Below, piece by piece: positions 4,314-52,020 of a DNA stretch of 64,000 nt. The translations under genes and the position numbers were made by a program. The DNA lies in assembly GCA_949292205.1 (NCBI GenBank), contig CASEYR010000008.1, positions 14,382-78,381 on the forward strand. The letters are read 5' to 3'. The stretch comes from an uncultured Alphaproteobacteria bacterium. GTDB taxonomy: Bacteria > Pseudomonadota > Alphaproteobacteria > CAAHEQ01 > UBA3637. Position 1 is the first letter of the stretch. Every line of letters starts with the position of its first letter. The notes beneath the pieces are model-generated. The model was not told the origin of the DNA, did no database searches, and saw only the letters and a list, made by a program, of their open reading frames with translations.

Positions 4314-4318
4314 AAAAC

Positions 4319-4345
4319 AAAGGGGCGCATTTTAATCGTCCCTTT
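4319..4345. terminator. bidirectional intrinsic terminator between convergent TPM gene and argS
   Basis: Hairpin AAAGGGGCG-cattttaat-CGTCCCTTT, flanked by an A-run on one side and a T-run on the other. Confidence 0.55.
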
Positions 4346-4365
4346 CTCTATATCGATTTTTATTT

Positions 4366-6129: not shown

Positions 6130-6367
6130 AATAATCCTTTCATATTTTGAGGGGGATTATATCCGAAGCACCCCCAAGAATCAAGCAAAAAATCAAACGG
6201 TAACTTCAAAAAAAGAGTGAAGCGTAAAGAGGCTTTCCGGATTCGCTCAATATATTCAACCTCTACAAATCAAAAAGTTTCACAACACAAAAAGACGAAC
6301 CAAAATCCACTTGATTTTAGAATGCAAAAAGAGTATAAAATCAACCATATCAAACGAGGTTTCAAAT

Positions 6368-9160
6368 ATGCAGAGTTTTATAAAAATACGAGGTGCCCGA
6401 GAACACAATTTAAAAGACATTGATGTTGATATTCCTCGGGATAAGTTAGTTGTCATAACCGGATTATCCGGATCGGGAAAATCGTCTTTGGCTTTTGATA
6501 CCATATATGCCGAAGGACAACGTCGCTATGTGGAAAGTCTTTCGGCATACGCACGTCAATTTTTGGATTTAATGAAAAAACCGGATGTTGACTTGATAGA
6601 GGGACTGTCTCCGGCAATTTCCATTGAACAAAAAACAACTTCTAAAAACCCTCGTTCCACCGTCGGAACGGTCACCGAAATTTATGACTATATGCGACTA
6701 CTTTGGGCTCGCATCGGTATTCCTTATTCGCCGGCAACGGGACTACCGATTGAAGCCCAAACCGTATCACAAATGGTTGATGCCTTAATGGCGTTAGATT
6801 GTGGTACGAAACTGATGATTTTGGCACCGGTCATTCGCTCTCGCAAAGGAGAGTATCGTAAGGAAATTTCTGAATGGCAAAAAAAGGGATTTACTCGCGT
6901 TAAAATGGATGGTGAGTTATACGAAATAGATGACACACCGGCTTTGGATAAAAACAAAAAACATGACATCTCTGTCATTGTTGATCGCGTCATTATCAAA
7001 GAGGGGTTAGAGGATCGGCTGGCTCAATCTATCGAGAAAGCTCTTGATTTAGCAGACGGGTTGGTTATTGCTGAAAATGCCGAAACACATACGGAAAAGT
7101 TGTTTTCATCTAAATTCGCCTGCCCTGTTTCCGGCTTTACGATTGCGGATTTAGAACCTCGCCTTTTTTCTTTCAATAACCCTCAAGGGGCATGCCCCAC
7201 CTGTTCAGGCTTAGGTTTTCGTCAGTATGTTGACCCTGCCCTTGTTATTCCCGACCCGACGAAGAGCATCAAGCAAGGTGCTATTGCGCCTTGGAGCCAC
7301 GGCGATGATATGTATCAATGGTATAGTATGGCATTAAAGTCTTTATTCCGAATACTACCGGAATTGGATTTAGATAAGCCATGGCATAAATTATCTCCGA
7401 AGGTTCAGCAAGCTGTTTTATACGGATATCATAAAGGGCATTCAGATTTTGAAGGTGTTATCCCAAATATGGAACGCCGATATCTGGAAACCGAATCTGA
7501 CTGGATGCGAGAGGAAATCGCAAAATATCAGGCCACCTCTCCCTGTGAAGCGTGTCACGGGGCTCGCCTAAAACCGGAGGCTCTGGCTGTTAAAGTCGGC
7601 GGAAAAAACATTTCCGAAGCGACCCATATTTCTATTGAAGGTGCCTTAAAGTGGTTTTCCGGTTTGAATGAGACTCTTTCTAAACAAAAGCAAGAAATAG
7701 CCAATCGTATTTTAAAGGAGATTATTGAACGCCTAACTTTCTTAAACAATGTCGGACTGGGCTATCTGGCGCTGGATCGGATGAGTGGTACTCTTTCCGG
7801 CGGTGAGGCTCAACGCATTCGTTTGGCAAGTCAAATCGGATCAGGCTTAACAGGCGTCTTATATGTTCTAGATGAACCCTCTATCGGTCTACATCAGCGA
7901 GATAATGATAAGCTACTTGAAACACTTACTCGACTGAGAGACTTGGGAAATACCGTGATTGTTGTTGAACACGACGAAGATGCCATTAGAACGGCTGACT
8001 ATGTCATCGACATCGGCCCCGGAGCAGGACGAAACGGCGGACATATTGTTGCGCAAGGAACGCCTCAAGAAATTATTAACAATCCGATTTCAACAACCGG
8101 ACAATTCTTATCAGGTATGCGAAAAATCATCGTTCCAAGCAAACGTCGCTCCGGCAACGGGAAGTTTTTAAGTATTGAGGGCGCTACAACAAACAATTTA
8201 AAAGATGTCAATGTTGATATCCCTTTGGGAACTTTTACCTGTGTTACAGGTGTCTCCGGAGGTGGCAAATCCTCACTGGTTATTGAAACATTGTATAAGG
8301 GATTAAATCAACTGATTAACAAATCCCGCGAACCGGCCGGTTCTTTTAAAAAAATACGTGGTGTCGGATATATTGATAAAATCATTGATATTGATCAGAG
8401 CCCCATCGGACGAACGCCTCGCTCTAATCCGGCAACTTATACAGGTATGTTTACTCTGATTCGTGAATGGTTTGCGGGTCTACCCGAATCTCAAGCACGC
8501 GGGTATAAACCAGGGCGCTTTTCATTTAATGTTAAAGGCGGTCGATGCGAAGCTTGCTGCGGTGACGGTGTACTAAAAATCGAAATGCACTTTTTACCGG
8601 ACGTTTACGTGGAATGCGATACTTGCCACGGCAAGAGGTATAATCGAGAAACTCTGGAAATAAAATATAAGGATAAATCTATTGCCGACGTCTTGGAAAT
8701 GACCATAGATGAAGCCGCTGACTTTTTTCAAAATATACCTGCTCTACATGATAAGTGTGCTTTGTTACAACACGTCGGATTAGGCTACATCTCACTGGGA
8801 CAATCGGCGGTCACACTATCCGGAGGTGAAGCTCAACGAATAAAACTCTCTAAGGAATTATCTCGTCGCAGCACAGGTAAAACACTTTATATCTTGGATG
8901 AACCAACAACAGGACTACATTTCGCCGATATTCAGAAGTTATTGGAAGTCTTGCATGCTTTGGTTGATCAAGGAAATACGGTTGTCGTCATTGAACATAA
9001 TTTAGACGTTATTAAAACGGCAGACTATATCATTGATATGGGACCGGAAGGCGGAGATGGTGGCGGACGAGTCGTCGCAACAGGCACCCCCGAACAGGTT
9101 GCCGAAAACCCCGGCAGCTATACGGGAAAATACCTGAAACGGCTCTTAGAAAAAACCTAA
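6368..9160 (+). CDS. uvrA: excinuclease ABC subunit A
   Basis: Start refined to the internal ATG ([16 protein letters not shown]...) preceded by GAGG. Two ABC ATPase modules with signatures LSGGEAQRI; zinc-finger Cys clusters. Confidence 0.93.
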
Positions 9161-9195
9161 ACATAAACTATTTTTAGACTGCTAAAGGAGAAAGA

Positions 9196-9669
9196 ATGAA
9201 TTTATTGATTGAATATCTGGATTGCTATGATAAGAGCTGGGGCGAGTTAAGTTACAAGCACACGGATGATTCGGGCTTTGATCTTCGGGCAGCCATACCC
9301 GAACCCATAACGCTAAAACCCGGAGAGTACGCCCTTATCTCCAATGGCATTAAAATCGAGTTTGAAGGTCCCTTTCCTTTTGGAGATGACATCGGATATG
9401 AAATTCAGGTCAGACCTCGTTCGGGATTAGCCGCTAAAAACGGGATATCCATTGTAAATACGCCGGGAACCGTTGATTTCGGATATCGGGGCGAATTAAA
9501 GACAACTCTTATCAATCTAGGAACACAGGATTTTATCATCAATCCGGGAGATAGAATTGCTCAAGCCGTTGTTTGTCCGGTCATTCATCCGAAAATAATC
9601 ACCACAACCTGTGTTTCAAATAATACAACTCGCGGAACGGGAGGATTTGGCTCTACCGGCAAGGCATAG
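9196..9669 (+). CDS. dut: dUTP diphosphatase
   Basis: 157 aa. dUTPase motifs RSGLAAKNGI, DFGYRGEL and C-terminal RGTGGFGSTG. Confidence 0.85.
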   Translation: MNLLIEYLDCYDKSWGELSYKHTDDSGFDLRAAIPEPITLKPGEYALISNGIKIEFEGPFPFGDDIGYEIQVRPRSGLAAKNGISIVNTPGTVDFGYRGELKTTLINLGTQDFIINPGDRIAQAVVCPVIHPKIITTTCVSNNTTRGTGGFGSTGKA

Positions 9670-9697: not shown

Positions 9698-10681
9698 ATG
9701 AAAAAAACCATAAAAATAAACTATATGGATTTCGGACGATATTCGGATCCGGAAAAGGAGTTCTTTACACCTTTTCTACGAAAAAGATATAATGTTGTTA
9801 TCTCGGATAAGCCGGATTATATCTTTTACACACTGGGCGGTAATACACACCACAACTTTTCGGGAATTCGTATCTTTTGGACGGGAGAAAATGTTGTTCC
9901 GAATTTCAATTACTGCGACTATGCTCTTGGCTTTCAACACATGACATTTGAGGATAGATATCATCGACTTCCCCTCTGGCGAATGTGCTTGTCCGATTTG
10001 AACAAGTCTTTAGAAAAAGGAACGACCCTATCTGATACTGCTCTTTTAAATCGTCAATTTTGTGCAACCGTTATTTCAAATGCACGCCAAACAGATGGAA
10101 AGCGAGAAGAAGCTTTTGAAAAACTATCCACATACAAAACCGTTGCCTCCGGCGGACGTTGGCGAAATAACGTCGGCGGACCGATCGCTGACAAAATAGT
10201 TTTTCAGCGTCAATATAAGTTCGCATTGGCTTTCGAAAATACATATGCTCCGGGATACACAACGGAAAAAATAATACAGGCCTTTGCCTCTGACACTGTC
10301 CCGATTTACTACGGAGATCCTCGTGTCACCGATGACTTTAATCCTGACTCTTTTATCAACGCTCATGATTTTGATACGACGGAACACTTGGTCGAGTTTG
10401 TCAAAAAAGTGGATCAAGATGACACGTTGTATTTAAAAATGATACATGCTCCGATTTTCAAAAACGGACAAATGCCGACTGATTTAACCGATGAGGCTCT
10501 TTTAAAATTCTTTGAACCGATTTTTGATGTTCCGCTTAAGGAAGCTAAAAGGCGTTTTTATGCAAAGCCCTATCAAGATATTGATTACGAAAACTTAAAA
10601 ATGCGAGACCTCAAAACAATGATTAAAACGTTCGGACAGAAACAAATTAAAAAGGTAAAGCACTTTATAATCGGCAAATAA
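9698..10681 (+). CDS. alpha-1,3-fucosyltransferase (glycosyltransferase family 10), Helicobacter FutA-like
   Basis: 327 aa. FWTGENVVPNFNYCDYALGF and YKFALAFENTYAPGYTTEKIIQAF...IPIYYGDPRVTDDFNP.SFINAHDF reproduce the GT10 motifs of H. pylori FucT. Confidence 0.85.
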   Translation: MKKTIKINYMDFGRYSDPEKEFFTPFLRKRYNVVISDKPDYIFYTLGGNTHHNFSGIRIFWTGENVVPNFNYCDYALGFQHMTFEDRYHRLPLWRMCLSDLNKSLEKGTTLSDTALLNRQFCATVISNARQTDGKREEAFEKLSTYKTVASGGRWRNNVGGPIADKIVFQRQYKFALAFENTYAPGYTTEKIIQAFASDTVPIYYGDPRVTDDFNPDSFINAHDFDTTEHLVEFVKKVDQDDTLYLKMIHAPIFKNGQMPTDLTDEALLKFFEPIFDVPLKEAKRRFYAKPYQDIDYENLKMRDLKTMIKTFGQKQIKKVKHFIIGK

Positions 10682-26895: not shown

Positions 26896-29154
26896 TTAAA
26901 TTAAAATACCATGATCCCGCGCGTACATTTTCAACTTCTCACGCAAAGATCCCGACGTTATTTCCAGTTGTTTTTCCAGATACGCCGATAAATGCTTTTG
27001 ATCCATTGTCCGAATTGCCGCCTTTACCGGCCCTAATGATGAAGGAGTCATTGATAGCGAACGAAATCCCAATCCGACCAAAGCAACAGCCTCTAAACTG
27101 CGACTTGCCATCTCACCACACACTGAACAGGGAACGTGTGCCTGTTGACAGATATCACAAATATATTTCAATGCCTTTAATAAGGATGGAGACAGCGAAT
27201 CATAGCGATTCCAAATCATGGGATTTCCACGATCACATGCATATAAAAATTGAGCCAAATCATTCGTTCCGATAGAGATAAAATCAACTTCTCTAACCAA
27301 TTGTTCCATCTGAAAAATCAAGGATGGAACTTCTATCATTGTTCCCACGCGAATTATGCGCGGCAAAGTCCCACCGCGACGTTTTTCCCGTTCAACCTCC
27401 ATCATTAAGGTCTTACGTGCCTCAATAAACTCACGAACAGAGGCAATCATAGGAAACATTACATACAAATCTAACCCGGCTGCAGCCCGAATAAAAGCAC
27501 GCAACTGACTCCGTAGCAGAGCCCGTCTATCCAAAGTCATTCGAATAGAGCGCCACCCCATCGCCGGATTTTCCTCGGTATGACGTTGAAAGTAAGGCAA
27601 AACTTTATCCGATCCGATATCCAGCGATCGAAAAACAACCGGCTTATTTTGAGCCTGCATCAATGCTCGCCGATATATATCTTCTTGCGTTTTTACGTCC
27701 GGTAATTCTTCTGCAATCATAAATGGCAGTTCTGTTCTATATAAACCGACACCATCAAAAAAAACACCGTCGCCGACCATTAAGTCATTTGAGAGTCCAG
27801 CATTAATATTTAAAGACACGGTTGTTCCATCTCGTGTCGTTGCCGGCAAATCCTTCATTTGAGCATAACGTGCACGTAATTTTTTCTGATTTTGAGCTCG
27901 CTCACTTAAAACATCAAGCGTTTCATCCGATGGATTTAAATAGACATTACCGGCCGTTGCATCCAAAGCAACCGAATCGCCGTTTGAAATAATCTGAGCC
28001 ACGTTTTTGATACCGCAAACCAAAGGTATATTCAAAGAACGTGCCACAATAACCATATGCATGGTTTGGGAACCTTCCTCCAAAACAATTCCTTTAATTT
28101 TACTTTTATCATAATCTAACAACTCAGCCGGTCCTAAATTTTTAGCAATTAAAATCGTATTTCTGGGTATTTTTCTATTTTGAATAGATTTCGCCCGCCC
28201 CAAATGCCTCCTTAATCGTCCGACCAAGTCACGAAAATCATGAATCCTCTCTTTGATATAAGGATCTGTCATTAGCTCCATCCTATCGGTAATTTCATCG
28301 CCCACTTTTTGAACTGCCGCATCTGCCGTTAAACCGGTTTCAATGGCTTTTATCATCTTGGCAATCCAACCTTTATCTTTGATAAACATCAAATATGTTT
28401 CAAAAATAGCCGATTGATCACCACTCATATGCGATGTTGCCAAAATCTTATTGACTTCACACTCAACTCGCTCTAACGCTTGCATTAATTTTTGAATTTC
28501 TTTTTGAGCATCTCCCGATAAAACCTGAACAACCTGCTCGGCTCTCTTATGAACCAAAGCTTGTCCGATAGCAAAACCATCAATTAAACCAGTACCTTCT
28601 ATTTTTTGTCGTCCACCAACCGACAACGTATCTGAATCAGATTTCTTAAATTGCTGACTCGCCAGCATTTCAGCCAAAACCATACCTATAGTTTCCAGCA
28701 ATTCAATCATTTCAGATGAGAAAGTTTGTATTTTTCGTGTTTGAATAGCCAACACACCCAAAATGCGATTAGCACGAATAAGTGGAACACCAACCAATGA
28801 TTTAAATTGTTTTTCTTTCGTCTCTGGCTTATACACAAAGCTGGTGTGGGACCAAACATCTTCAACGGCTAATGGTTTACGCTGTAATGCAATCTCGCCG
28901 ACAAGACCTTCCCCAATTCTCAAAAAAGTTTCATGAACGGCTTTCTTATCTAATCCGTATGTTGCACATAGTTCCAGTATTCCGCCGGGACGAGAAATAT
29001 AACAAGAACAAACATCAACATTTAATCGTTGAGCAACCTGTTCTACTATTTTATCTAATCGTTCCTGTGGAGGCATATCTCGAGCAGTTAATGCCCGCAA
29101 AGACTTCATAATTTGCCGAACAGAAATCATATCATGCAAACGGTTGCGATCCAT
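26896..29154 (-). CDS. ptsP: phosphoenolpyruvate-protein phosphotransferase PtsP (EI-Ntr) with N-terminal GAF domain
   Basis: 752 aa. GAF, then a PEP-utilizing enzyme domain (mobile His region, PEP-binding TIM barrel CGEMA). Confidence 0.9.
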   Translation of the reverse strand: MDRNRLHDMISVRQIMKSLRALTARDMPPQERLDKIVEQVAQRLNVDVCSCYISRPGGILELCATYGLDKKAVHETFLRIGEGLVGEIALQRKPLAVEDVWSHTSFVYKPETKEKQFKSLVGVPLIRANRILGVLAIQTRKIQTFSSEMIELLETIGMVLAEMLASQQFKKSDSDTLSVGGRQKIEGTGLIDGFAIGQALVHKRAEQVVQVLSGDAQKEIQKLMQALERVECEVNKILATSHMSGDQSAIFETYLMFIKDKGWIAKMIKAIETGLTADAAVQKVGDEITDRMELMTDPYIKERIHDFRDLVGRLRRHLGRAKSIQNRKIPRNTILIAKNLGPAELLDYDKSKIKGIVLEEGSQTMHMVIVARSLNIPLVCGIKNVAQIISNGDSVALDATAGNVYLNPSDETLDVLSERAQNQKKLRARYAQMKDLPATTRDGTTVSLNINAGLSNDLMVGDGVFFDGVGLYRTELPFMIAEELPDVKTQEDIYRRALMQAQNKPVVFRSLDIGSDKVLPYFQRHTEENPAMGWRSIRMTLDRRALLRSQLRAFIRAAAGLDLYVMFPMIASVREFIEARKTLMMEVEREKRRGGTLPRIIRVGTMIEVPSLIFQMEQLVREVDFISIGTNDLAQFLYACDRGNPMIWNRYDSLSPSLLKALKYICDICQQAHVPCSVCGEMASRSLEAVALVGLGFRSLSMTPSSLGPVKAAIRTMDQKHLSAYLEKQLEITSGSLREKLKMYARDHGILI

Positions 29155-29518: not shown

Positions 29519-29533
29519 AATACTCACCTTTTT

Positions 29534-29609
29534 GACCCTATCGTCTAGAGGCCTAGGACATCGCCCTTTCACGGCGGTAACGCGAGTTCGAATCTCGCTA
29601 GGGTCGCCA
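29534..29609 (+). tRNA. tRNA-Glu (TTC)
   Basis: Cloverleaf: acceptor GACCCTA/TAGGGTC, anticodon loop CTTTCAC, T-loop TTCGAAT, GCCA end. Confidence 0.93.
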
Positions 29610-29613
29610 ATCA

Positions 29614-29641
29614 AGCAGTGCTAAAAACGCACTGCTTTTTT
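29614..29641 (+). terminator. intrinsic terminator after tRNA-Glu
   Basis: AGCAGTGC-taaaaac-GCACTGCT followed by TTTTTTT. Confidence 0.7.
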
Positions 29642-29749
29642 TGTATAAAAAAATATAATCTATACCTCTAAAGAATTTCACTTGCCAAATACCAAAAATT
29701 GAGTATAAAGAGTTCATACATTATACTCTATTCCGGCGAGGTTAATTAA

Positions 29750-30652
29750 ATGGCTAACTCACACAAAAAACACTTGCATTTACATACGCATCATCATGAA
29801 GTCAGCAATAAGACTGTCTTTTACTTATTTTTGTCATTTTTGATTAACATAATTTTATCTCTTGTTGAAATCATTGGTGGTTTTATCGCCGGTAGTGTCT
29901 CATTGATAGGAGATGCTTTACACAATACATCAGATGCTTTGTCAATCCTAATTGCCGTTATCGCTTTTAAAATCGGTCGAAAAAAAGCTGATACACAGTA
30001 TACTTATGGCTTTAAGCGAGCCGAAACCATCGGTGGATTTATCAATTTAATTTTGTTATTCATATCCGGATGCTATCTGGTTGTTGAGGGAATAACACGA
30101 ATTATTTCCCCCTCTGCTATCAACGGATCAATTATTATCTGGGTTTCTGTTCTTGCTCTGCTTATTGATGTCGCAACGGCAAAACTATCACATCAAGATG
30201 CTGACAAAAATACAAATATGCGTATGGTCTTTTTACACAATTTAGCAGATGCCTTAGGGTCTGTCGGCGTCATTATATCAGGTCTGTTCGTGGTTTTTGG
30301 AGATATCTATTGGATTGATGGCGTTATCGCTCTTTGCATTGCCACCTATATGATTTATCAGTCCGTTTGTTCATTTCCTCATATCGTTAAAATCTTGATG
30401 AATGCCGCTCCGGAACATATTAATCCGACAGAAATAAAAGAAGCTCTCTGCCAAATCTCGGGAGTAAAAGATATTCATCATCTGCATATCTGGTACATCA
30501 ATGAAACGGATATTTCTTTAGAATGTCATTTAGTTGCTGACAACCCAAAGCTCATACAAGAAATCACACATTTTTTAAAAGATGAGTTTCAAATTACTCA
30601 CACCAACATTCAAATCGAGCAAAGTGCCGATTGTGAAGTGTGTTGTTTATAA
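29750..30652 (+). CDS. cation diffusion facilitator family transporter (CzcD-like)
   Basis: 300 aa. His-rich N-terminus; 6 TM; CDF signature in TM2; C-terminal cytoplasmic domain with a terminal CEVCC. Putative promoter TTGCCA-16-TATAAA at 29682..29709. Confidence 0.8.
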   Translation: MANSHKKHLHLHTHHHEVSNKTVFYLFLSFLINIILSLVEIIGGFIAGSVSLIGDALHNTSDALSILIAVIAFKIGRKKADTQYTYGFKRAETIGGFINLILLFISGCYLVVEGITRIISPSAINGSIIIWVSVLALLIDVATAKLSHQDADKNTNMRMVFLHNLADALGSVGVIISGLFVVFGDIYWIDGVIALCIATYMIYQSVCSFPHIVKILMNAAPEHINPTEIKEALCQISGVKDIHHLHIWYINETDISLECHLVADNPKLIQEITHFLKDEFQITHTNIQIEQSADCEVCCL

Positions 30653-30673
30653 GTTATTTCAATAAAAAGTTAT

Positions 30674-31150
30674 TTATTCAATTAAATCAGCCAGTTCAAC
30701 AGGAATGACCTGTTTTAATGCCGCCAAGGAAAGCTCGACCTGATACCCGATTTTACCACCACTAAAAATGATTGTATCAAAATCTACCGCCGTCTGATGA
30801 ATAACCGTCGGAAAGAGTTTCTTCATTCCGATAGGAGAACATCCTCCGTGAACATATCCGGTCAGATGAAGCAACTCTTTCATCGGTAACATCTCTATTG
30901 CTTTCTCACCAACAGATCTGGCTGCTTTTTTTAAATCCAAAACGGTGGCAACAGGTATCATAAACACATAATATCGTTTAGATTTTGAAACAGTAACCAA
31001 GGTTTTAAACACACGGTTAATATCTTGATTCAAAGCACAAGCAACTTCCACACCGTTTATCACTCCTGCTCCGACATAGCTATGAGCCGTATAAGGAATA
31101 TGCTCTTGCTCTAAAATTCGCATCACATTTGTTTTAATTTCTTTAGTCAT
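30674..31150 (-). CDS. ybaK: Cys-tRNA(Pro)/Cys-tRNA(Cys) deacylase YbaK
   Basis: Start refined to MTKEIK... YbaK motif TGYVHGGCSPIG. Confidence 0.75.
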   Translation of the reverse strand: MTKEIKTNVMRILEQEHIPYTAHSYVGAGVINGVEVACALNQDINRVFKTLVTVSKSKRYYVFMIPVATVLDLKKAARSVGEKAIEMLPMKELLHLTGYVHGGCSPIGMKKLFPTVIHQTAVDFDTIIFSGGKIGYQVELSLAALKQVIPVELADLIE

Positions 31151-31985
31151 GAGTCCGTTCAATAGACTTTTGCATACAGCGTAGTTGCTGACGCGTAACA
31201 CGTCCTTCAAATACAGTCGTTGCAGGACCGGTCATGAGAACACTCTTTTTTTCAGCGAGCCAAGAGACATCTAAGCAACCACCTAATAATTCAACCCGAG
31301 CAAAATCCTGACAATATTTTTCAGTAATGGCAGCCACCACAGAAGCACAAGCCCCTGTTCCGCAAGCCATCGTCTCGCCGGATCCACGTTCCCACACTCG
31401 CATTTTCAAGCAGTGATTATTTACAACCTCAACAAACTCAACGTTTGTGCGATTAGGAAATTCGGGTCTTATTTCAATTTCAGAGCCGATCCCCTTAACA
31501 TCAAAAGCAGCTACATTTTGAACAAAGACGACAAAATGAGGGTTGCCCATAGACACATTCATCCCCGAAATATCTAATCCGTTTTTCAACTTTAAGCACA
31601 AATGATCTCCGATAACAGGTGCGCCCATGTCCACTTGAACCGCTTGCACACGACCGTTTTTAACACTTAAGTTAAGTGTTTTAACTCCGGCAAGCGTTTC
31701 AACAGTTAAATTTTCTTTTTTAGTTAAGCCCTTATCATATACATACTTTCCGACACAGCGAATACCATTTCCGCACATTTCTCCTTCCGAGCCATCCGCA
31801 TTAAACATTCGCATCCGAAAATCGGCTTTTTCAGACGGGAGTATCACAATCACCCCATCAGATCCGATGCCTGTATGAGACGGACTAACAACTTTCGCCA
31901 AAGCCCCCCAATCTTGTTCTTTTTCCATCAACCCGTTAAGATAGATATAATCATTGCCCAAACCATGCATTTTAGTAAAGCGCAT
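31143..31985 (-). CDS. dapF: diaminopimelate epimerase
   Basis: 280 aa. FTKMHGLGNDY, catalytic Cys (GNGIRC, ACGTGACA). Confidence 0.9.
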   Translation of the reverse strand: MRFTKMHGLGNDYIYLNGLMEKEQDWGALAKVVSPSHTGIGSDGVIVILPSEKADFRMRMFNADGSEGEMCGNGIRCVGKYVYDKGLTKKENLTVETLAGVKTLNLSVKNGRVQAVQVDMGAPVIGDHLCLKLKNGLDISGMNVSMGNPHFVVFVQNVAAFDVKGIGSEIEIRPEFPNRTNVEFVEVVNNHCLKMRVWERGSGETMACGTGACASVVAAITEKYCQDFARVELLGGCLDVSWLAEKKSVLMTGPATTVFEGRVTRQQLRCMQKSIERTHD

Positions 31986-32013
31986 AACAATTTCCTTTCA
32001 TAGAGATAAATTA

Positions 32014-32214
32014 TTAGTAATGAGGGGGTGGGGTTTCCTCGGACAGAGGCTTAACCAACGCTTCGGCGGAACGATCTTTCAATGCCTCAATTTTTTGATC
32101 CAATAGAGATAAAAGACGAGATAGACGCAAAACCTCAGCATTCAAATCATCCAGTATACGCTCTTGATTTGCCAAGAAAACCTCAATATCCACCAGTCGC
32201 TTTTCCAGATTCAT
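32014..32214 (-). CDS. slyX: SlyX family protein
   Basis: 66-aa coiled coil ending ...ETPPPHY, the SlyX C-terminal signature. Confidence 0.7.
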   Translation of the reverse strand: MNLEKRLVDIEVFLANQERILDDLNAEVLRLSRLLSLLDQKIEALKDRSAEALVKPLSEETPPPHY

Positions 32215-32227
32215 TTAAAACCTCGTA

Positions 32228-32258
32228 GAAAAAAGAGGTCTTTTATGACCTCTTTTTC
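32228..32258. terminator. palindromic intrinsic terminator closing the secreted-protein operon
   Basis: AAAAAGAGGTC-ttttat-GACCTCTTTTT. A/T runs on both sides. Confidence 0.7.
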
Positions 32259-32267
32259 CGTTAGCTA

Positions 32268-33780
32268 TTACTCTGACTGAATAGTAGCACAATCAACTAA
32301 AGCACCGTTGCAAGCACAATCATCAGCCGCCTGAGCACAACTATGTTCATCGTTCAAGAATCGAACGTAAAGAGGACGCTGATAATAAGCCGTTGTCACG
32401 GGTCCGGCAGTCGTCACGGGTCCGGCAGTCGTCACGGGAGCCGTTGTCTCAGGAGCCGTTGTCGTTGTCGGAGCCGTTGTTGTCGTTGTCGGTGTAGCCG
32501 TCGTTGTTGTTGAAAGTGGTCTAGAGAAACTTGTCACCGTTGAGTACTCATTACTGACAGGATTAGACACAGACGATCCTTTTGACGATGTTGACTCAAA
32601 CAACGGATAGGTTGTTCTTGGATACGTCGTTGAGGTCGACTCTGTCATGGTTGACGTTGTCGTTGAGTGTGACGTTGTCGACGGCAACGTTGAATACGAC
32701 GTTGAGTGTGACGTTGTCGACGGCAACGTTGAATACGACGTTGAGTGTGACGTTGTTGACGGCAACGTTGAATACGACGTTGAGTATGACGTTGTCGACG
32801 GCAACGTTGAATACGACGTTGAGTATGACGTTGTCGACGGCAACGTTGAATACGACTGTCGACGGCAACGTTGAATACGACGTTGAGTGTGACGTTGTTG
32901 ACGGCAACGTTGATACCTCTGTCATGGAAGAAATCGTTGACGGCAACGTTGAATACGACGTTGTTGACGGCGACGTTGAATATGACGTTGTTGACGGCGA
33001 CGTTGATACCTCTGTCACGGAAGAAACCGTTGACGGCAACGTTGAGTGTGACGTTGTTGACGGCGACGTTGAATACGACGTTGAGTATGACGTTGTTGAC
33101 GGCGACGTTGATACCTCTGTCACGGAAGAAATCGTTGACGGCGACGTTGATACCTCTGTTACGGAAGAAACCGTCGACGGCGACGTTGATACCTCTGTCA
33201 CGGAAGAAATCGTTGACGGCGATGTTGATACCTCTGTTACGGAAGAAACCGTCGACGGCGACGTTGAATCAGGCGGTGGCGTTGTTGTCGTTTGAATATC
33301 AGCACACTGACAAGACCCATCTATATACATCGGCATCTGACTGGGATGACATGTAACACATGATGGACAACATTGTGCCCTATTCTGCTGATCCGGAGCA
33401 TAACAACCACTGGGACAAGATACATCCCCACCGATAACACTGCTTGTTATTACATCACCCAGCGTTGAAATCACATCGCCTTGTATCGTGGTATCCCCTA
33501 ATATAGTAGAGGTTGTATCCCCCACAACAGTGGAAGATGTATCCCCAAGTGTTGTCGTGGAATCATCCGCAAATGTTGTCGTTTCAAAGAACGGCGTGGA
33601 TGACATACCACATCTGGGATCCGATGGATTTTCCTCACAATAACAGACGCATCGCCCGTCAACAAATCCAACCGGATCAAACTCACACTTGTCAGGCGCA
33701 CAACATACCTCTGCCGTCCATCCGACCTGTGACAAAATCAACGGGATGACCGCCACCCCTGCCATTAAAACGATACGCAT
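32268..33780 (-). pseudogene. secreted mucin-like Ser/Thr-rich repeat protein with N- and C-terminal Cys-rich domains; frameshifted
   Basis: ORF 32596..33780 (signal peptide, CC-containing Cys domain, VSSVTEVSTSPST repeats) and ORF 32268..32843 (STLPSTTSYSTSY repeats, TTTAP linker, C-terminal Cys domain) are one gene. They are split by a frame change at about 32857, where a 39-nt repeat unit lacks 14 nt. Confidence 0.75.
32640..33280. repeat. two families of 39-nt (13-codon) tandem repeats
   Basis: About 7 copies of GTTGAGTGTGACGTTGTCGACGGCAACGTTGAATACGAC, then about 8 copies of GTTGACGGCGACGTTGATACCTCTGTCACGGAAGAAATC-type units. One unit at 32857..32881 is truncated to 25 nt. Confidence 0.9.
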
Positions 33781-35022
33781 TTAATCCTCCTTTTGACGTC
33801 CCGATGTCGTCGGTGCCGCCTGCATAACATTTACCTGACGCACCAAACGGGGCGTTCCTTTGGGTTGTTTCAGGGTATAGATAAACTCTTTATTTTTAAT
33901 TGAATCCGTTAACAACTTTTCTGCCGGCGGAATAACCCTATCCAACTGGCGTTTTAATACCGTCAACACCTTTGCCCGATTTGGGGTCCATTGATTTTGG
34001 GATTTTAAATAATCCGGTTCATTGGCGATAGCCGATTTCAACACATCCAAACTCTTTTGTGCCCGTGTATATTGAATATACCGCATTTTTACCAATGATT
34101 CATACTCATGATCCACCATATCCAGATTAAGCAAAACCAAACTATCCACCACCTTCATTCGGCGATATTCGGAATGAAAGAAACAACCGGACGGGTCATC
34201 AATTTTTCCTGTTTCTATTTGTGAAACATCATAAATCGGATACCCCCATCGGGTTTGCATATCCCGTTTCCGTTCATCAACCAATTCGGCAGGAACTTCC
34301 GCCAACTTGTCCCCCGTAATTAAATACTTTTCGGGGATAAACTTGCCCCCGTATTCATTCCGATGAAACATATCCATATTCGGCACAAAGAACGGCACAT
34401 CAAATAAAAAGGACATATTTTCATTCACAACATCCCGCAGTGTTTCGGCATACGCCCGTTCATCAGGGGTAAATGTATTCAGGACTTTATCCGGTATTGT
34501 AAAAAACGGTTGCGCCCCTTGAACCGGTTCAAAAACCGCCATCATTTTACCGGCATCCAATTTAAAATGATACACGACAACGCGATTTTTATATAAACTT
34601 AACCGAAAGTCATCACCCCAATACAGCCCGCTTGCCCCCGGTCCCCAATACCAATTACCTTGATTCGCCCGAATCAAAGCCATATAATGCGGGGGAATTT
34701 TATCATAGTTAGAGGAAGCCTCCATTTTTTGATTAATATACGGTATTTTTTCAGGATCACGGGTCCGTCGCGGTGGGAAAGCAGCCGTTGCCAAATGTTT
34801 TGCAACAAAGTCATCTATACCGGTTAACGGGATATCAACGGATTCCGTTTTGGGACGGGATATCCCCTTGCCCATCCGTTGTCCCCCGACGGAAGCCAAC
34901 ATCACCCGATTTCTGGCGCCTGTCTGTCCCGTATATCTACCGGATGCCCCCATGACCGGTGTCGTCGTCATAACCGCCATTGCCAATAAACTTAACATCG
35001 TCTTTTTTGCCTGATATCCCAT
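33781..35022 (-). CDS. secreted hypothetical protein (413 aa)
   Basis: N-terminal signal peptide (MKKTMLSLLAMAVMTTTPVMGASG). No recognisable domain. Its stop abuts the ATG of the mucin-like gene (TAAATG). Confidence 0.55.
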   Translation of the reverse strand: MGYQAKKTMLSLLAMAVMTTTPVMGASGRYTGQTGARNRVMLASVGGQRMGKGISRPKTESVDIPLTGIDDFVAKHLATAAFPPRRTRDPEKIPYINQKMEASSNYDKIPPHYMALIRANQGNWYWGPGASGLYWGDDFRLSLYKNRVVVYHFKLDAGKMMAVFEPVQGAQPFFTIPDKVLNTFTPDERAYAETLRDVVNENMSFLFDVPFFVPNMDMFHRNEYGGKFIPEKYLITGDKLAEVPAELVDERKRDMQTRWGYPIYDVSQIETGKIDDPSGCFFHSEYRRMKVVDSLVLLNLDMVDHEYESLVKMRYIQYTRAQKSLDVLKSAIANEPDYLKSQNQWTPNRAKVLTVLKRQLDRVIPPAEKLLTDSIKNKEFIYTLKQPKGTPRLVRQVNVMQAAPTTSGRQKED

Positions 35023-35036
35023 GTTTTTACTCCTTT

Positions 35037-35885
35037 TTATTCGTCCTTAACTTCACCACATCCTGCCGGCACCCATTCACCGTTGTCATCTTTACCGGTA
35101 CACTTGGGGCAACATTCGCACGTTGTTACACCATCACCATCTTCATCATTACAATTATACAGCTCACCGGCACAACAGGCAGACTCACCAGCTCCATTCA
35201 CATACGCTTTTTCACCGTCCGGACAACCCTCGCACTTACCATCTTTAATGCTTGCCTTGTCACAACAAACGTATTCACCGGCATCATTTTTGGCAATGTC
35301 TTCACTGGCTTCACAACACAACGCCACCCCTTCCTTTTCACGCAATACTTCCGAGGCATCGCAACAATATTCTATTCCATTTGAACTTATATATGGAACT
35401 TCCCCATCCTTACAACACGAAGCCTTACATGACTTTGTTCCATCATCTTCCACACACACTTTGTTCGGAGATATACAACATGCCTCTATCCTAGAAGTAG
35501 GGGTTGGATTATACTTTTCCGCATCAGCTGGACAACAACCATATGTATAAGCTAAAACTCCAGATGGACATGTTCTAGTCCCCGCGATATACCATTGCAG
35601 TTCAGCACTATCATCATCACCACCACAGCACGGCGTTCCATCCGGCGCTAAATTTGAACAGAACAAACCGCCACAAGAAGATCGACAACACCCAGCATGT
35701 ACAGCACAATCATCTGCCCCAAAACAAACTTCTTTAGAACACTCCGAATATCCAGAGGGGCAGTTTATCACATCATCTTCTTCCGATGCATCAACTGGAC
35801 ATGCATCAAAAATCTGAGCACTGCCAGAAAAGCTATAAGCAATAAGAAACAATAGTACATATATCCATATCTTCATATACACCAT
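35037..35885 (-). CDS. secreted cysteine-rich protein with CC doublets (282 aa)
   Basis: Signal peptide, then about 45 Cys, many as CC pairs (CCKDG, CCDAS, CCEAS, CCDKA, CECCPKC). Start 4 nt after the stop of the upstream gene. Confidence 0.6.
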   Translation of the reverse strand: MVYMKIWIYVLLFLIAYSFSGSAQIFDACPVDASEEDDVINCPSGYSECSKEVCFGADDCAVHAGCCRSSCGGLFCSNLAPDGTPCCGGDDDSAELQWYIAGTRTCPSGVLAYTYGCCPADAEKYNPTPTSRIEACCISPNKVCVEDDGTKSCKASCCKDGEVPYISSNGIEYCCDASEVLREKEGVALCCEASEDIAKNDAGEYVCCDKASIKDGKCEGCPDGEKAYVNGAGESACCAGELYNCNDEDGDGVTTCECCPKCTGKDDNGEWVPAGCGEVKDE

Positions 35886-35889
35886 CCTA

Positions 35890-37416
35890 TTATTCAGAAA
35901 CTATATCTTCATTTTCATCTTCATTTTCATCTTCATTTTCATCTTCATTTACTTCAATACTAGAGCCTAAAACAGAACATGGTGGACTATAGTATCCTGT
36001 CCCTGATTTAGTAGATATGGCACAAACAACCGGATAATATTCTATCTTATCACATCCGCAATTAGCCGTCGGCTTCACACAGATGGGGGCAATCCTAGCT
36101 AGATGATGCGTCCACGATGGAGCACAACCATAAATCAAATAACTACATAGACCAGAATAATAAACCTCATTAGATAACAGTACCTCACCCGGTTTACAAG
36201 GAGAGCAAGCCTCATTCTGAGGAACACCGTTACAACAATACTGTCCCGCATTCAAACATGTTCTACCACACAAACCATGAACACAACACTGACCTGTATC
36301 AGATTTTTCACCATCGCAACTGCCGATTCCACCCATACCGGGCTCATCATTACCACTATTACCACCACTGCTGCCGCCATCTTCGACATCACAAAACTCA
36401 TTGTCCGGAAGACAAACATTTTCGCACTCATTCGTTCTATCAGGGCAAGAGCAATAGCTACCTGATTGTCCCTTAACCGTATAGGGGCAATCCTCTTTAC
36501 AACACCCATCTACGCACTCATACGGCCTATCCGTCGGGCATCCACCACACGACTCACCGTCCGGAATACAAACACCTTCGCAATCATACGTTCCATCAGG
36601 GCAAGAGCAATAGCTACCTGATTGTCCCTTAACCGTATAAGGACAATCCTCTTTACAACAATCGTCCTCACACTCATACGGTGTCGTTACAAGGCATCCG
36701 TCACCAGAACAGAATCCCGCATCATCACAATCATCGCAACACTTTAAATCCGACGGACACAAAATCGTCCCATACGAACATCCGCCCTGACAATCCGTTC
36801 CAAAGCACAAAATAAACGGTGTCCGAGCTTCCCCTTCGGGATTTTCAGCATTCGGTCGAGACGGACTCCGCTTTGCCGGATCCACAATCTCACAAAACGC
36901 ATCAACTTCATCCTCGTCAGAGGTTGTATATACAAATTTGTTTGAATCGCTCAACCTTGCCGATGTATACTCTAAATTTGCACGCAATAGCTTACGACAA
37001 ACATTCCATGTCATTTCCTCAACATAGACTTCAAATGTCTTTTTGTTAATAACATCAACAAAAATCTCGGCCCCCGTCGGCGTCGTAAAACCATAGATCG
37101 TTCCATCCGCTTCCGGTTCTAAAAAGGTAACACCGCTAATCACTTCTTTGATCGGGATCTGGATACGCCCCCCTGCCTCGGCACGTTCACCATACTTGTC
37201 CGTAATAAATCCCGTTCGCGATCCAACGATTGATTTAACAACCCAGTCAACGGTTTCATTTTCTTTATGGAGTTCAATAGCGTAATGGTATCCCCACAAT
37301 GCCGTTATAGACAAAACACCGACAATAGCCAGTGTTGCCAACATTTCAATCATGGTCCTACCCGATTCGCCTTTCAAATCACCTTGAAGCACGCGAAATC
37401 CCTTAAACATACCCAT
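35890..37416 (-). CDS. prepilin-like N-terminus fused to a disulfide-rich repeat domain (508 aa)
   Basis: N-terminus MGMFKGFRVLQGDLKGESG|RTMIEMLATLAIVGVLSITALWGY: short basic leader, Gly, Glu at +5, about 20 hydrophobic residues (class III signal-like). About 150-aa domain, then Cys-rich modules with a 52-aa internal duplication (YEC.DDCCKEDCPYTVKGQSGSYCSCPD) and an (EDEN)4 acidic tail. RBS GGGGGT. Confidence 0.6.
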   Translation of the reverse strand: MGMFKGFRVLQGDLKGESGRTMIEMLATLAIVGVLSITALWGYHYAIELHKENETVDWVVKSIVGSRTGFITDKYGERAEAGGRIQIPIKEVISGVTFLEPEADGTIYGFTTPTGAEIFVDVINKKTFEVYVEEMTWNVCRKLLRANLEYTSARLSDSNKFVYTTSDEDEVDAFCEIVDPAKRSPSRPNAENPEGEARTPFILCFGTDCQGGCSYGTILCPSDLKCCDDCDDAGFCSGDGCLVTTPYECEDDCCKEDCPYTVKGQSGSYCSCPDGTYDCEGVCIPDGESCGGCPTDRPYECVDGCCKEDCPYTVKGQSGSYCSCPDRTNECENVCLPDNEFCDVEDGGSSGGNSGNDEPGMGGIGSCDGEKSDTGQCCVHGLCGRTCLNAGQYCCNGVPQNEACSPCKPGEVLLSNEVYYSGLCSYLIYGCAPSWTHHLARIAPICVKPTANCGCDKIEYYPVVCAISTKSGTGYYSPPCSVLGSSIEVNEDENEDENEDENEDIVSE

Positions 37417-37508: not shown

Positions 37509-37787
37509 CTAAAAAACCTCTCCGAAGCGATTATCCACCAAAAGACTTAGTGCTTCTACCGCTTGACCGGCGTCCTCACCCTCCGCCGTTATCTTAATTG
37601 TATCTCCCAAAGGGACTGCTAACATCAAAAGTCCCATTATGGATTTTCCGGAAGCACTCTGACCATCTTGCTTTTCTACGGAAATATCCGACCGAAACGT
37701 CTCGGCCACCTTGACAAATGCCGCTGTTGCACGAGCGTGAAGTCCTTTTAAATTCTGAATCTTTACCGTTCGAGTGACCGTGTCCAT
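37509..37787 (-). CDS. phosphocarrier protein HPr/NPr
   Basis: 92 aa. Active-site His in GLHARATAAFV. Confidence 0.8.
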   Translation of the reverse strand: MDTVTRTVKIQNLKGLHARATAAFVKVAETFRSDISVEKQDGQSASGKSIMGLLMLAVPLGDTIKITAEGEDAGQAVEALSLLVDNRFGEVF

Positions 37788-38189
37788 CTAATTATCCAAT
37801 CTTAATAAATGTGACGCTATATTGATATACTTACGCCCCGCTTCCTGTGCTGCCAAAACAGCATCCGGAACAGTTTCTGTGCGTTCACGCATTAGCTTAA
37901 CCAACATCGGTATATTCATTCCGGACACAACCTCTATATTACACTCCTCCATAATAGAAATAGCTAAGTTAGACGGTGTCCCCCCAAACATATCCGTGAT
38001 AACAACTACACCATCCCCCGTATCAACAGCGGCTGTCTTTTCCAAGATCTCTCGTCTTTTTTGCTCCATATCGTCATCGGGGTTAATTCCCACACACTCA
38101 ACACCCGTTTGCGGACCAACAACATGCTGTGTTACCGCCAACATCTCTTGAGCTAACCGACCATGTGTTACTAAAACGATACCTATCAT
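37788..38189 (-). CDS. PTS EIIA component, mannose/fructose family
   Basis: 133 aa. MIGIVLVTHG...; PF03610-like N-terminus with the conserved His. Confidence 0.75.
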   Translation of the reverse strand: MIGIVLVTHGRLAQEMLAVTQHVVGPQTGVECVGINPDDDMEQKRREILEKTAAVDTGDGVVVITDMFGGTPSNLAISIMEECNIEVVSGMNIPMLVKLMRERTETVPDAVLAAQEAGRKYINIASHLLRLDN

Positions 38190-38192
38190 TAT

Positions 38193-38660
38193 TTACTCCT
38201 TTTCAATCAATGTTGTCGTCAATTTTAATTTTTGCATTGACAACTGCATGATAGTCCATGCTTGATCTACCAAAGCCGGATGACTTTTCCAAAGTCGATA
38301 AGCCGGCACTTTATGCTCCCCCAAAAACTCGATATTTTGCTCAGGCAATCGCTCTGGGCATTCATCTACCAACTCAATAACCGCTGCAACAGGAGCATTT
38401 GCACAAACCTTAAATCCAGACACTATCCCGATTGAACGAACTTCCAAACAACCGATACCACGTTCCGGCAAAACTGCCAGTAAATCTGTTCCGCTCTCAG
38501 TAAGCTGCGTTACATCATCCGAAACCAACAAAGCCCCTCGATATATGAGTTGAAGAGCCAACGAAGACTTTCCCGAACCAGACCTCCCCCGAATCAGAAA
38601 AGCATGATTATCCAAACAAATACTTGTTGCAGCAATCTGTTGTGCAAAGGAAGCCTTCAT
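38193..38660 (-). CDS. hprK: HPr kinase/phosphorylase, short alphaproteobacterial form (C-terminal kinase domain only)
   Basis: 155 aa. P-loop [19 protein letters not shown]. Gene order hprK-EIIA(Man)-npr is the alphaproteobacterial arrangement. Confidence 0.8.
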   Translation of the reverse strand: MKASFAQQIAATSICLDNHAFLIRGRSGSGKSSLALQLIYRGALLVSDDVTQLTESGTDLLAVLPERGIGCLEVRSIGIVSGFKVCANAPVAAVIELVDECPERLPEQNIEFLGEHKVPAYRLWKSHPALVDQAWTIMQLSMQKLKLTTTLIEKE

Positions 38661-50856: not shown

Positions 50857-52020
50857 CTAACCCGATGTGGGTGGTGTACATGTTCCATTATTCCACTCAC
50901 CCGTCCATGTTCCTCCACATGATTCACACTGAGCCTTGTATTGTAAGGAACCAACCTCTACGGTTGAACAATCCTCACACTTACCACCGACAGAAACTGT
51001 CCCATCAGCACATCGCCTGCAATAACCTCCGCCATATGCAAAATTACACCAATTACATGCTGTTCCAACTCCGGTCATACCAACCGGATTATCCCAAACA
51101 TATCCATCATCATTCCCTTCATCACAGGCATAACATCTTCCACCCTGACTATTAACGCCATGTAACGGCTTATCAATAGGACATTTACACACCCCATTTA
51201 CCTCTATCATCCCCTCGGGACACTCTAAACGACAATAAAAGGCTGAATCTGAAACTCTATTTGGACACATCGAACAAGCCTGTCCCGCTGGAAAATAGAA
51301 TACAGTCTCAGAATAACAATCTATGCATTGCCCATTATTTTTATTGGGCATAAATTGTCCCGGAGGACAACACAAGCCATTCCAACTCACACAACAAGTT
51401 TTTTCACCTTTTTCATTTTCAGAAACAGAGCTGCAACAAAAACCATCTATCATTTTATCAGTAGAACAACAAACCTTACTGTGAGCATTATTAATATCAA
51501 TACCACATTCCTGTCCATCGGGACAACTTTCTTGACAGACACCATCAATACAATCATCGCACTTAGATGAACAATCCGATTTCTTTGTACAATGTTCCGG
51601 TTTTTCTGCTGAGGCCCCCAAAGTACTCGTAAATTCAAACTGTATCCGATTTGTTTCTTGACATATATCTGCATTATTCTGAGCTATTGTATCCCCCACA
51701 TAAATAGCTATCGGTAATTTAAAGTCCGCTCTGACAATTTGCTCACAAACGCCTTGTGGAATATCGGAAAGTGTAATAGCAAAGAAATTGTCACTCAATA
51801 AAAGCTGTTGAACAGGATACCCCTGCTCCGTTTCTGATTTAAACTCTGGCGTATCTACCGTTCTCCCAACCATTAATTTTTGTGAAATAATAATGGCTCG
51901 TTTTTTAACCTCATTGATAATCTCATTGGATTGATACTTATCCATAGCCCAGCGATAACCCATAATGCCACCGATTGCCAAGACACCCATCAAAGCCAGA
52001 ACGCCCAGCATTTCCACCAT
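50857..52020 (-). CDS. paralog of the prepilin-like/Cys-rich secreted protein (387 aa)
   Basis: MVEMLGVLALMGVLAIGGIMGY... parallels MIEMLATLAIVGVLSITALWGY of the 35890..37416 protein. C-terminal half has many CC doublets. In-frame upstream codons encode ...KENESGRS with no ATG/GTG/TTG. Confidence 0.55.
   Translation of the reverse strand: MVEMLGVLALMGVLAIGGIMGYRWAMDKYQSNEIINEVKKRAIIISQKLMVGRTVDTPEFKSETEQGYPVQQLLLSDNFFAITLSDIPQGVCEQIVRADFKLPIAIYVGDTIAQNNADICQETNRIQFEFTSTLGASAEKPEHCTKKSDCSSKCDDCIDGVCQESCPDGQECGIDINNAHSKVCCSTDKMIDGFCCSSVSENEKGEKTCCVSWNGLCCPPGQFMPNKNNGQCIDCYSETVFYFPAGQACSMCPNRVSDSAFYCRLECPEGMIEVNGVCKCPIDKPLHGVNSQGGRCYACDEGNDDGYVWDNPVGMTGVGTACNWCNFAYGGGYCRRCADGTVSVGGKCEDCSTVEVGSLQYKAQCESCGGTWTGEWNNGTCTPPTSG

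Follow-up and report, generated by a model that had tools for sequence, protein, structure and literature searches.

Gene organization at the locus

The DNA analysed here, termed the window, is a 64,000-nucleotide (nt) stretch of contig CASEYR010000008.1 (assembly GCA_949292205.1) from an uncultured alphaproteobacterium. On its minus strand, at 32268..33780, it carries a gene for a predicted secreted, Pro/Thr/Ser-rich, mucin-like protein that is interrupted inside a tandem repeat array. The list of open reading frames (ORFs) contains two minus-strand entries for this region, 32596..33780 (394 amino acids, aa) and 32268..32843 (191 aa), and translation of the minus strand in three frames identifies them as parts of one gene. 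The frame that starts with the ATG at 33780 holds Pro-Ser-Thr (PST)-type repeats up to ...STLPST, and past this point it decays into (VVFNVAVDNVxLN)n. It is there that frame +1 resumes the PSTTSYSTSYSTL repeats, to remain open to the TAA at 32268. The two frames are joined at repeat unit 12 (32865..32841), which comprises only 25 nt, CCGTCGACAGTCGTATTCAACGTTG, and is the sole lesion that shifts the frame (by +1). An ORF of ~504-508 aa is thereby split into pieces of 394 and 191 aa; the repaired product has 504 aa if 2 nt are restored, and 508 aa if 14 nt are restored. The missing length is not a multiple of 3 in either case, and the relatives described below have a single ORF where they are covered. 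An earlier sequence-only reading of the window had attributed the same two ORFs to a split mucin-like gene. We recovered both exactly, and the composition of the repaired product, which has a signal-like N-terminus and Cys-rich modules, bears out the comparison with mucins: the mature protein contains 23.8% Thr, 22.7% Ser and 8.5% Pro (55% Pro/Thr/Ser).

The features of the gene, all on the minus strand, are as follows.

32268..33780: whole frameshifted gene for a predicted secreted Pro/Thr/Ser-rich (mucin-like) protein (ORFs, three-frame translation, composition, orthologs)
33786..33790: putative ribosome-binding site GGAGG, 6 nt upstream of the ATG (sequence; same arrangement in related loci L018 and L024)
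33712..33780: hydrophobic, signal-peptide-like N-terminus, MRIVLMAGVAVIPLILSQVGWTA (translation; conserved in L018 and L024)
33607..33708: Cys module 1, 7 Cys, CCx4Cx11CxCxCx8C (all Cys kept in L018 and in the L024 protein)
33424..33573: degenerate Thr/Ser-Gly-Asp repeats, xxGDTxST-like (translation)
33301..33423: Cys module 2, CPSGC...CCPSCVTC...CQC (translation; paralogous copy in L019 and L020)
32866..33258: repeat units 1-11 in the ATG frame, a mosaic of B, A and A-short units (tandem repeat search, anchor parsing)
32841..32865: defective 25-nt unit (unit anatomy, translation)
32646..32840: units 13-17, a block of 39-nt A units that is now out of frame (unit comparison)
32596..32856: out-of-frame tail of the 394-aa product, (VVFNVAVDNVxLN)x5 ..., with the stop at 32596..32598
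32271..32645: untranslated 3' part, made up of a Ser/Thr segment (unique), the Thr/Pro-rich tract and, at the C-terminus, a conserved motif with 4 Cys (translation, relatives)
32222..32259: intrinsic-terminator-like hairpin, 13-bp stem and U tract, past the ancestral stop (folding versus shuffles)

The minus-strand gene is genuine, as indicated by its ribosome-binding site, signal-like N-terminus, Cys modules, composition and terminator. The TAA of the upstream gene, which encodes a 413-aa protein, lies at 33781..33783 and abuts the ATG at 33780, as it also does in L018 and L024, and translation is therefore likely to be coupled to that gene. The signal peptide is predicted from the translation and from conservation in the orthologs. 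The terminator hairpin has a folding energy of -18.9 kcal/mol (z-score -3.9), and none of 200 shuffled sequences was equally stable. In a single-sequence AlphaFold2 model, Cys module 2 is the only part that reaches a predicted local distance difference test (pLDDT) score of 71-85; the N-terminal model (pLDDT 51) was too poor for a structure search.

The repeat array and the defective unit

The two 39-nt repeat families of the sequence-only reading were recovered by Tandem Repeats Finder as arrays at 32661..32856 (5.0 copies, 98% matches, score 371) and 33095..33267 (4.4 copies, 91% matches, score 297). When units were parsed on the coding (minus) strand with CCGTC[AG]AC (Pro-Ser-Thr) as the anchor, the array resolved into 17 units (33258..32646) in a mosaic of 39-nt and 27-nt types. 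The 39-nt B units encode PSTVSSVTEVSTS and the 39-nt A units PSTTSYSTSYSTL. Three 27-nt A-short units (PSTTSYSTL, at 33063, 32997 and 32970) correspond to A units minus one internal 12-nt TSYS sub-repeat. The A-type unit occurs six times in the window at up to 3 mismatches, and not once in 100 shuffles. Units 13-16 differ pairwise by 0-2 nt and form a recently homogenised block; unit 17 is divergent. The repeat periods found at the gene are 39, 27, 18 and 12 nt, and the longest exact repeat in the array has 60 nt. All unit sizes are multiples of 3 nt, which upholds the earlier suggestion that slippage by whole units would stay in frame.

The unit that breaks the gene had been described as a 39-nt unit with a 14-nt deletion. 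That a single unit breaks the frame is correct, but a loss of 14 nt is not required. The 25-nt unit fits equally well as a 39-nt A unit that lacks 14 nt (ACGTCAYACTCAAC) or as a 27-nt A-short unit that lacks AC, since the array natively holds 27-nt units. In the parse with the 14-nt loss, a G at position 6 ties unit 12 to the downstream block of A units. There is no flanking microhomology at either candidate deletion, and both shift the frame by +1. The states at unit 12 can be told apart by short sequences: CCGTCGACAGTCGTATTC marks the lesion and CCGTCGACAACGTCGTATTC an intact 27-nt unit, and a full 39-nt unit after unit 11 would read ...CACACTCAACGTCGTATTCAACGTTG followed directly by CCGTCGAC...

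Downstream of the lesion, units 13-17 and the rest of the gene up to the stop are in frame +1, and the 3' part (32271..32645) is open in this frame to the ancestral stop at 32268..32270. It is unlikely that the 3' fragment is expressed on its own, as its internal TTG starts have neither a ribosome-binding site nor a signal peptide.

Related loci and strain variability

Relatives of the gene were found through the neighbouring genes; direct searches with the repeat gene gave none. The N-terminal 171 aa had no match in a word-indexed search (5.8e9 proteins), in an exhaustive HMMER search (1.84e9 proteins) or in JGI metagenome contigs. Together with Pfam and NCBIfam, the two protein searches revealed no homology to any named family. 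The failure with the N-terminus reflects limits of sensitivity or coverage rather than a true orphan, because synteny later led to the L024 homolog. A search for the repeat-unit pattern in the JGI metagenomes likewise had no match. No record was found for the exact products, whether of the 394-aa and 191-aa ORFs, of eight alternative starts or of ORFs on the plus strand; this look-up is uninformative, as even the called 126-aa product of contig L003 is absent from the collection. Searching the literature for the accessions of the runs and the assembly gave nothing. Two of the contigs found, L015 and L022, end short of the repeat gene.

Locus L018 (SRR9850998), which has 96-98% nucleotide identity to the window, contains the operon and the first 214 codons of the ortholog, open and with all Cys conserved. 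Its array begins with a different order of units, namely PSTTSYSTTYSTS, PSTISSMTEVSTT and PTTVTSVTEVSTS. L019 (SRR9850998) and L020 (SRR29449908) cover the last 254 and 246 codons, respectively, open in the PST frame. They carry additional Thr/Pro repeats and, past the array, an extra Cys module with 49% identity to module 2 (E 6e-8). L023 (SRR29999949) covers the last 168 codons, which are open, and its array ends in a 27-nt unit. Finally, a scaffold of a sister species (L024) has the same four-gene order, which ends in an intact 394-aa Ser/Thr-rich protein with 102-nt repeats of its own; its N-terminus and Cys module 1 align with those of the window protein at 42% identity (E 8e-18). The orthologs in L018, L019, L020 and L023, which represent three related strains, and the homolog in L024 are thus in frame wherever they are covered.

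L003, an ENA MEGAHIT contig of the same strain as the window, matches 32756..29524 with only one difference in 3.2 kb. This difference, at 32747 (position 10 of L003, and thus 10 nt from its end), is the C/T that distinguishes His-type from Tyr-type units. The L003 sample may thus carry a different array allele, or be polymorphic for it.

The array had been proposed as a hotspot of variability, and a comparison of repeats and frame among strains had been suggested as a check. In this comparison the in-frame 39-nt and 27-nt units differ in order or type between the window and L018, L019/L020 and L023, with the extra Cys module in L019/L020 and the single difference at 32747 in L003, and all frames are open where covered. 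The repeat content therefore varies as expected of such a hotspot. The Thr/Pro-rich tract (32388..32520, minus strand) also differs from L019 and L023 by indels of whole units (TTTTAP, TTMTHTTTTH and GPVTTA-type); a perfect 18-nt repeat (2.4 copies, 32395..32438) lies inside it.

Age of the lesion

The 191 codons past the lesion are open to the same stop as in the orthologs and show no secondary damage. The alignable non-repeat part of this segment (127 codons) differs from L019 by 9 synonymous and 5 non-synonymous changes, a ratio of non-synonymous to synonymous rates (dN/dS) of 0.19. For comparison, dN/dS is 0.04-0.07 in the housekeeping neighbours, and 0.61 in the N-terminal part of the gene versus its relatives (5 synonymous and 10 non-synonymous differences). 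Because the frame past the lesion is fully open and its dN/dS is 0.19, the lesion would be recent; more precisely, it is either very recent or not real.

A lesion in the DNA or in the consensus

We consider it fairly probable that the lesion is present in the DNA, and not only in the consensus. The earlier reading had offered an assembly collapse in the repeat as the alternative, and this does not hold up. When a repeat is collapsed, units are joined in register at k-mers that they share, and whole units would be dropped, not 2 or 14 nt. Every k-mer across the junction GACA|GTCG is unique and has nothing in common with other units, and the longest repeat has 60 nt. Collapse of an assembly graph can therefore not have created the junction.

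A different error is the most serious competitor, although we regard it as rather unlikely: the gene could be intact in the organism, with the missing 2 (or 14) nt being an error of the reads, the consensus or the polishing. References are well known to go wrong in tandem repeats, and in the Erdman strain of Mycobacterium tuberculosis approximately half of the structural differences between references turned out to be errors (PMC12817950). All Logan and MEGAHIT contigs that we examined, including every short-read contig of the same strain, stop inside the array. The lack of decay in the downstream frame and the intact frames of all relatives, where visible, would also be explained. Against such an error, a de Bruijn assembler is unable to invent a junction of unique k-mers when no exact repeat exceeds 60 nt. 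The rest of the window is clean where it can be checked: the Logan contigs L001 (35934..33238) and L004 (32690..29553) are identical to it, without a single difference over 5.8 kb, and the window has no other split genes. L003 and L004 independently support the 3' part (32271..32645) at 100% identity. The case illustrates that metagenome assemblies from short reads systematically break or miss surface genes that are rich in repeats and lack annotation.

Interpretation of the locus

Taken together, the data are best explained by a variable secreted-protein gene with a recent, strain-specific truncating or pseudogenising allele, a reading to which we assign a moderate probability. The structure of the gene, the lesion, the synteny of the operon, the variability among strains and the intact downstream frame are direct observations. 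The organism is an uncultured, host-associated (gut) alphaproteobacterium that would export, by the Sec pathway, a protein of ~504-508 aa, composed of disulfide-type Cys modules, the mosaic of 39-nt and 27-nt repeats, the Thr/Pro-rich tract and the conserved C-terminal Cys motif. The product is most likely a fibre or adhesin of extended shape, secreted or at the surface and possibly O-glycosylated, that is produced together with a pilin-like, Cys-rich protein encoded in the same operon. Slipped-strand mispairing or unequal recombination between units would reshuffle and resize the array between strains, and the frame would be kept because all units are multiples of 3 nt. In the present allele one unit would have lost 2 nt (or 14 nt), with a shift to frame +1 and a stop at 32596. 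The predicted truncated product has 394 aa, ends in an 87-aa nonsense tail and is devoid of the last ~191 codons.

Several points weigh against this interpretation. No independent contig crosses 32757..33237, and the lesion is seen in a single contig for which the sequencing technology is not stated; the junction is absent from all 25 loci that were fetched. The dN/dS of the N-terminal part is high, if calculated from just 15 differences, and relaxed constraint could fit as well. The repeat protein has no family match in Pfam or NCBIfam. Export, surface location and glycosylation are predictions.

If the lesion is real, an uncultured gut alphaproteobacterium has, at the level of strains, lost or truncated a hypervariable secreted protein, which is the usual signature of selection by host or phage on surface structures, and the array would be a useful marker for strain typing. 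Change of an array from strain to strain is ordinary behaviour for the gene of a variable bacterial surface protein.

Reversible switching is an improbable alternative, in which the 25-nt unit would represent the OFF state, unequal recombination of the flanking units would restore the frame and populations would be mixtures of ON and OFF cells. Units 11 and 13 differ at just 2 of 39 nt, and a 64-nt deletion (25+39) that joins them would, by arithmetic, leave 1449 nt in frame. Moreover, the array clearly recombines between strains, and the L003 contig differs in unit type in an otherwise identical strain. The OFF state could thus be revertible in principle. However, there is no mechanism to remake the 25-nt unit, and the conversion would hence be one-way, from OFF to ON. 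Unit sizes of 39, 27 and 12 nt are all multiples of 3, unlike those of true contingency loci.

Recoding across the lesion, by programmed +1 ribosomal frameshifting or transcriptional slippage, is very unlikely to provide the full-length protein. The frames upstream and downstream of the lesion are both open over 326 nt (32924..32596), and a shift anywhere in this overlap would give the full-length product. However, neither an X_XXY_YYZ heptamer nor a homopolymer of at least 5 nt occurs in the overlap, which also lacks a CUU-UGA of the prfB type and any further known +1 motif, and L019, L020, L023 and L024 need no shift.

Long ORFs are open on both strands over the array, and the one on the plus strand at 32582..33295 would encode 237 aa with acidic VDGNVEYDVE repeats. 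It is hardly credible that this is the true gene and the minus-strand frame its shadow, as this ORF is limited to the repeats and has a TTG start without a ribosome-binding site, whereas the ribosome-binding site, coupled start, signal peptide, terminator and non-repeat Cys modules conserved in strains and the sister species are found on the minus strand only. The plus-strand ORFs over the array are instead shadows of ACG- and TCG-rich codons.

Comparison with known repeat proteins

The gene is an unannotated addition to a known kind, the strain-variable tandem-repeat surface proteins, and by analogy it appears to behave most like MSP1a of Anaplasma marginale. MSP1a is a surface adhesin, also from an alphaproteobacterium, with repeats that vary in number and sequence between strains and serve as strain markers; they are reported to be O-glycosylated and involved in adhesion (PMC3679145). 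The shared features are strain-variable, in-frame, Ser/Thr-rich tandem repeats in an alphaproteobacterial exported protein (export being predicted in the present case). In contrast, Pfam and NCBIfam gave no match that would show sequence homology, and the units have 9-13 aa, whereas those of MSP1a reach 31 aa. The array is bordered by Cys modules, the gene is in an operon with a pilin-like protein, and the allele is frameshifted, all of which sets it apart from MSP1a.

The Vlp and Vsa proteins of Mycoplasma and the streptococcal alpha C protein are likewise surface proteins with in-frame repeats and variable size. In the staphylococcal SD-repeat adhesins, in-frame repeats of the minisatellite type grow and shrink through slippage or recombination, and thus change the length and antigenicity of the surface protein (PMC3324548). 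These proteins differ from the present one in that they come from Gram-positive bacteria or mollicutes, have LPXTG or lipoprotein anchors and another repeat chemistry, and are not known to occur in operons with pilin-like Cys-rich proteins.

The likeness to secreted mucins of eukaryotes (central repeats with >50% Pro/Thr/Ser, and small Cys-rich modules that flank or intersperse them) is compositional only. Pfam searches found no VWD, C8, CK or SEA domains in the repeat protein, which is moreover far smaller and bacterial, and may be O-glycosylated. The serine-rich repeat proteins (SRRPs) Fap1, GspB and PsrP are also Ser-rich, repetitive, exported adhesins, with O-glycosylation as an SRRP feature. 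Assignment to this group was rejected, as the translation has no LPXTG motif, long KxYKxGKxW signal peptide or SxSx repeats, and no secA2, secY2 or gtf genes are nearby; the neighbours examined for this linkage encode DapF, SlyX, the nitrogen-related phosphotransferase system (PTS-Ntr) and Cys-rich proteins. A repeat tract in a surface-protein gene together with a frameshifted (OFF) allele is reminiscent of the contingency loci of Neisseria and Haemophilus. This assignment was rejected as well: contingency loci use units of 1-7 nt that alter the frame, whereas the unit lengths here are divisible by 3, and a single indel event within one unit accounts for the frameshift.

The operon and its genomic neighbourhood

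More unusual material adjoins the repeat gene, namely a conserved operon of Cys-rich, pilin-like proteins with a 413-aa member that lacks a fold match. The repeat gene is the last of four tightly packed genes on the minus strand, from 37416 to 32268. The other three, all on the same strand, are as follows.

35890..37416: first gene, 508 aa, prepilin-type N-terminus and duplicated Cys-rich modules (TIGR02532)
35037..35885: second gene, predicted secreted protein of 282 aa with 12.8% Cys (translation, context)
33781..35022: third gene, predicted secreted protein of 413 aa, fold without known match (profile and structure searches)

The 508-aa protein scores 16.8 bits with TIGR02532 (cut-off 16.3) and has the type IV prepilin motif (G|RTMIEML, with Glu at +5). 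The repeat protein has an ordinary signal-like N-terminus without this motif.

The two Cys-rich genes (35037..37416) are hyperdivergent between strains, which points to a hypervariable or recombining surface locus. Compared with L018 (8941..11465), they have a synonymous divergence (dS) of 0.44-0.74 and a non-synonymous divergence (dN) of 0.20-0.33, and encode 508 versus 490 aa and 282 versus 349 aa, whereas dS is 0.05-0.08 in the flanking housekeeping genes.

Fifty-seven unannotated proteins make up the family of the 413-aa protein. Its AlphaFold2 model, from a 38-sequence alignment, is confident, with a pLDDT of 79 (core above 90) and a predicted template modelling score of 0.77, and it matched neither PDB structures (best E 1.5) nor those of BFVD (best E 0.12). 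This gene alone (33800..35033) matches, with 96.1% DNA identity along 1,234 bp, an insert found in scaffolds from Kiritimatiellaeota; the positions concerned in this comparison are L016 8266..9496, L017 729..1959 and L002 78..231. The insert has 43% G+C, compared with 65-68% in the scaffolds, and the copy and a glycosyltransferase-2 fragment form one in-frame fusion, located upstream of a GH16 gene. A look-up by protein cluster (P0009) yielded GH16 loci that are unrelated, since a fusion ORF had united two families in one 90% cluster. One contig of a Kiritimatiellaeota metagenome-assembled genome (MAG) retains just the last 150 nt of the gene, the only result of a contig scan with the 413-aa protein. 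A copy with 76% identity is labelled Candidatus Spyradenecus (Lentisphaerota). The presence of the gene in Kiritimatiellaeota looks like a recent cross-phylum transfer or a recurrent chimeric assembly.

As a more speculative suggestion, to which we attach a low probability, the four-gene operon may build an undescribed surface fibre in gut Alphaproteobacteria. The pilin-like Cys-rich protein, the Cys-rich secreted protein, the 413-aa protein without a match to a solved or viral fold and the mucin-like protein may be its parts. The mucin-like subunit would mimic host mucin, and recombination would resize it and switch it OFF and ON, the 25-nt unit being a natural OFF state.

A 387-aa Cys-rich paralog of the pilin-like protein (9.3% Cys; 23% identity over the N-terminal 150 aa, E 2e-10) is encoded at 50857..52020 on the minus strand, adjacent to rsmB-ftsZ. 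In the sister species (L024), the whole four-gene operon (3477..9469) sits at the position of this paralog. In the pilin-like gene of L024, a scaffold gap of Ns coincides with a 93-nt repeat.

Directly upstream of the operon lie genes for a short HPr kinase, EIIA-Man and NPr, followed by LysRS, and downstream those for SlyX and DapF. The cluster at 37509..38660 (minus strand) encodes the HPr kinase (C-terminal domain only, 155 aa), EIIA-Man (133 aa) and NPr (92 aa). With PtsP-GAF encoded at 26896..29154, the genes have the PTS-Ntr layout that Alphaproteobacteria typically show. This fits the alphaproteobacterial origin that is indicated by UvrA, the nearest named relatives of which are from Alphaproteobacteria or Pseudomonadota MAGs (78-84% identity). 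The window has ~41% G+C, and a search with Rfam detected three tRNAs only. At 9698..10681, on the plus strand, the window also encodes an alpha-1,3-fucosyltransferase of family GT10 (FucT_N 1.6e-27, Glyco_transf_10 1e-22), a family associated with mimicry of host glycans, which fits a host-associated lifestyle.

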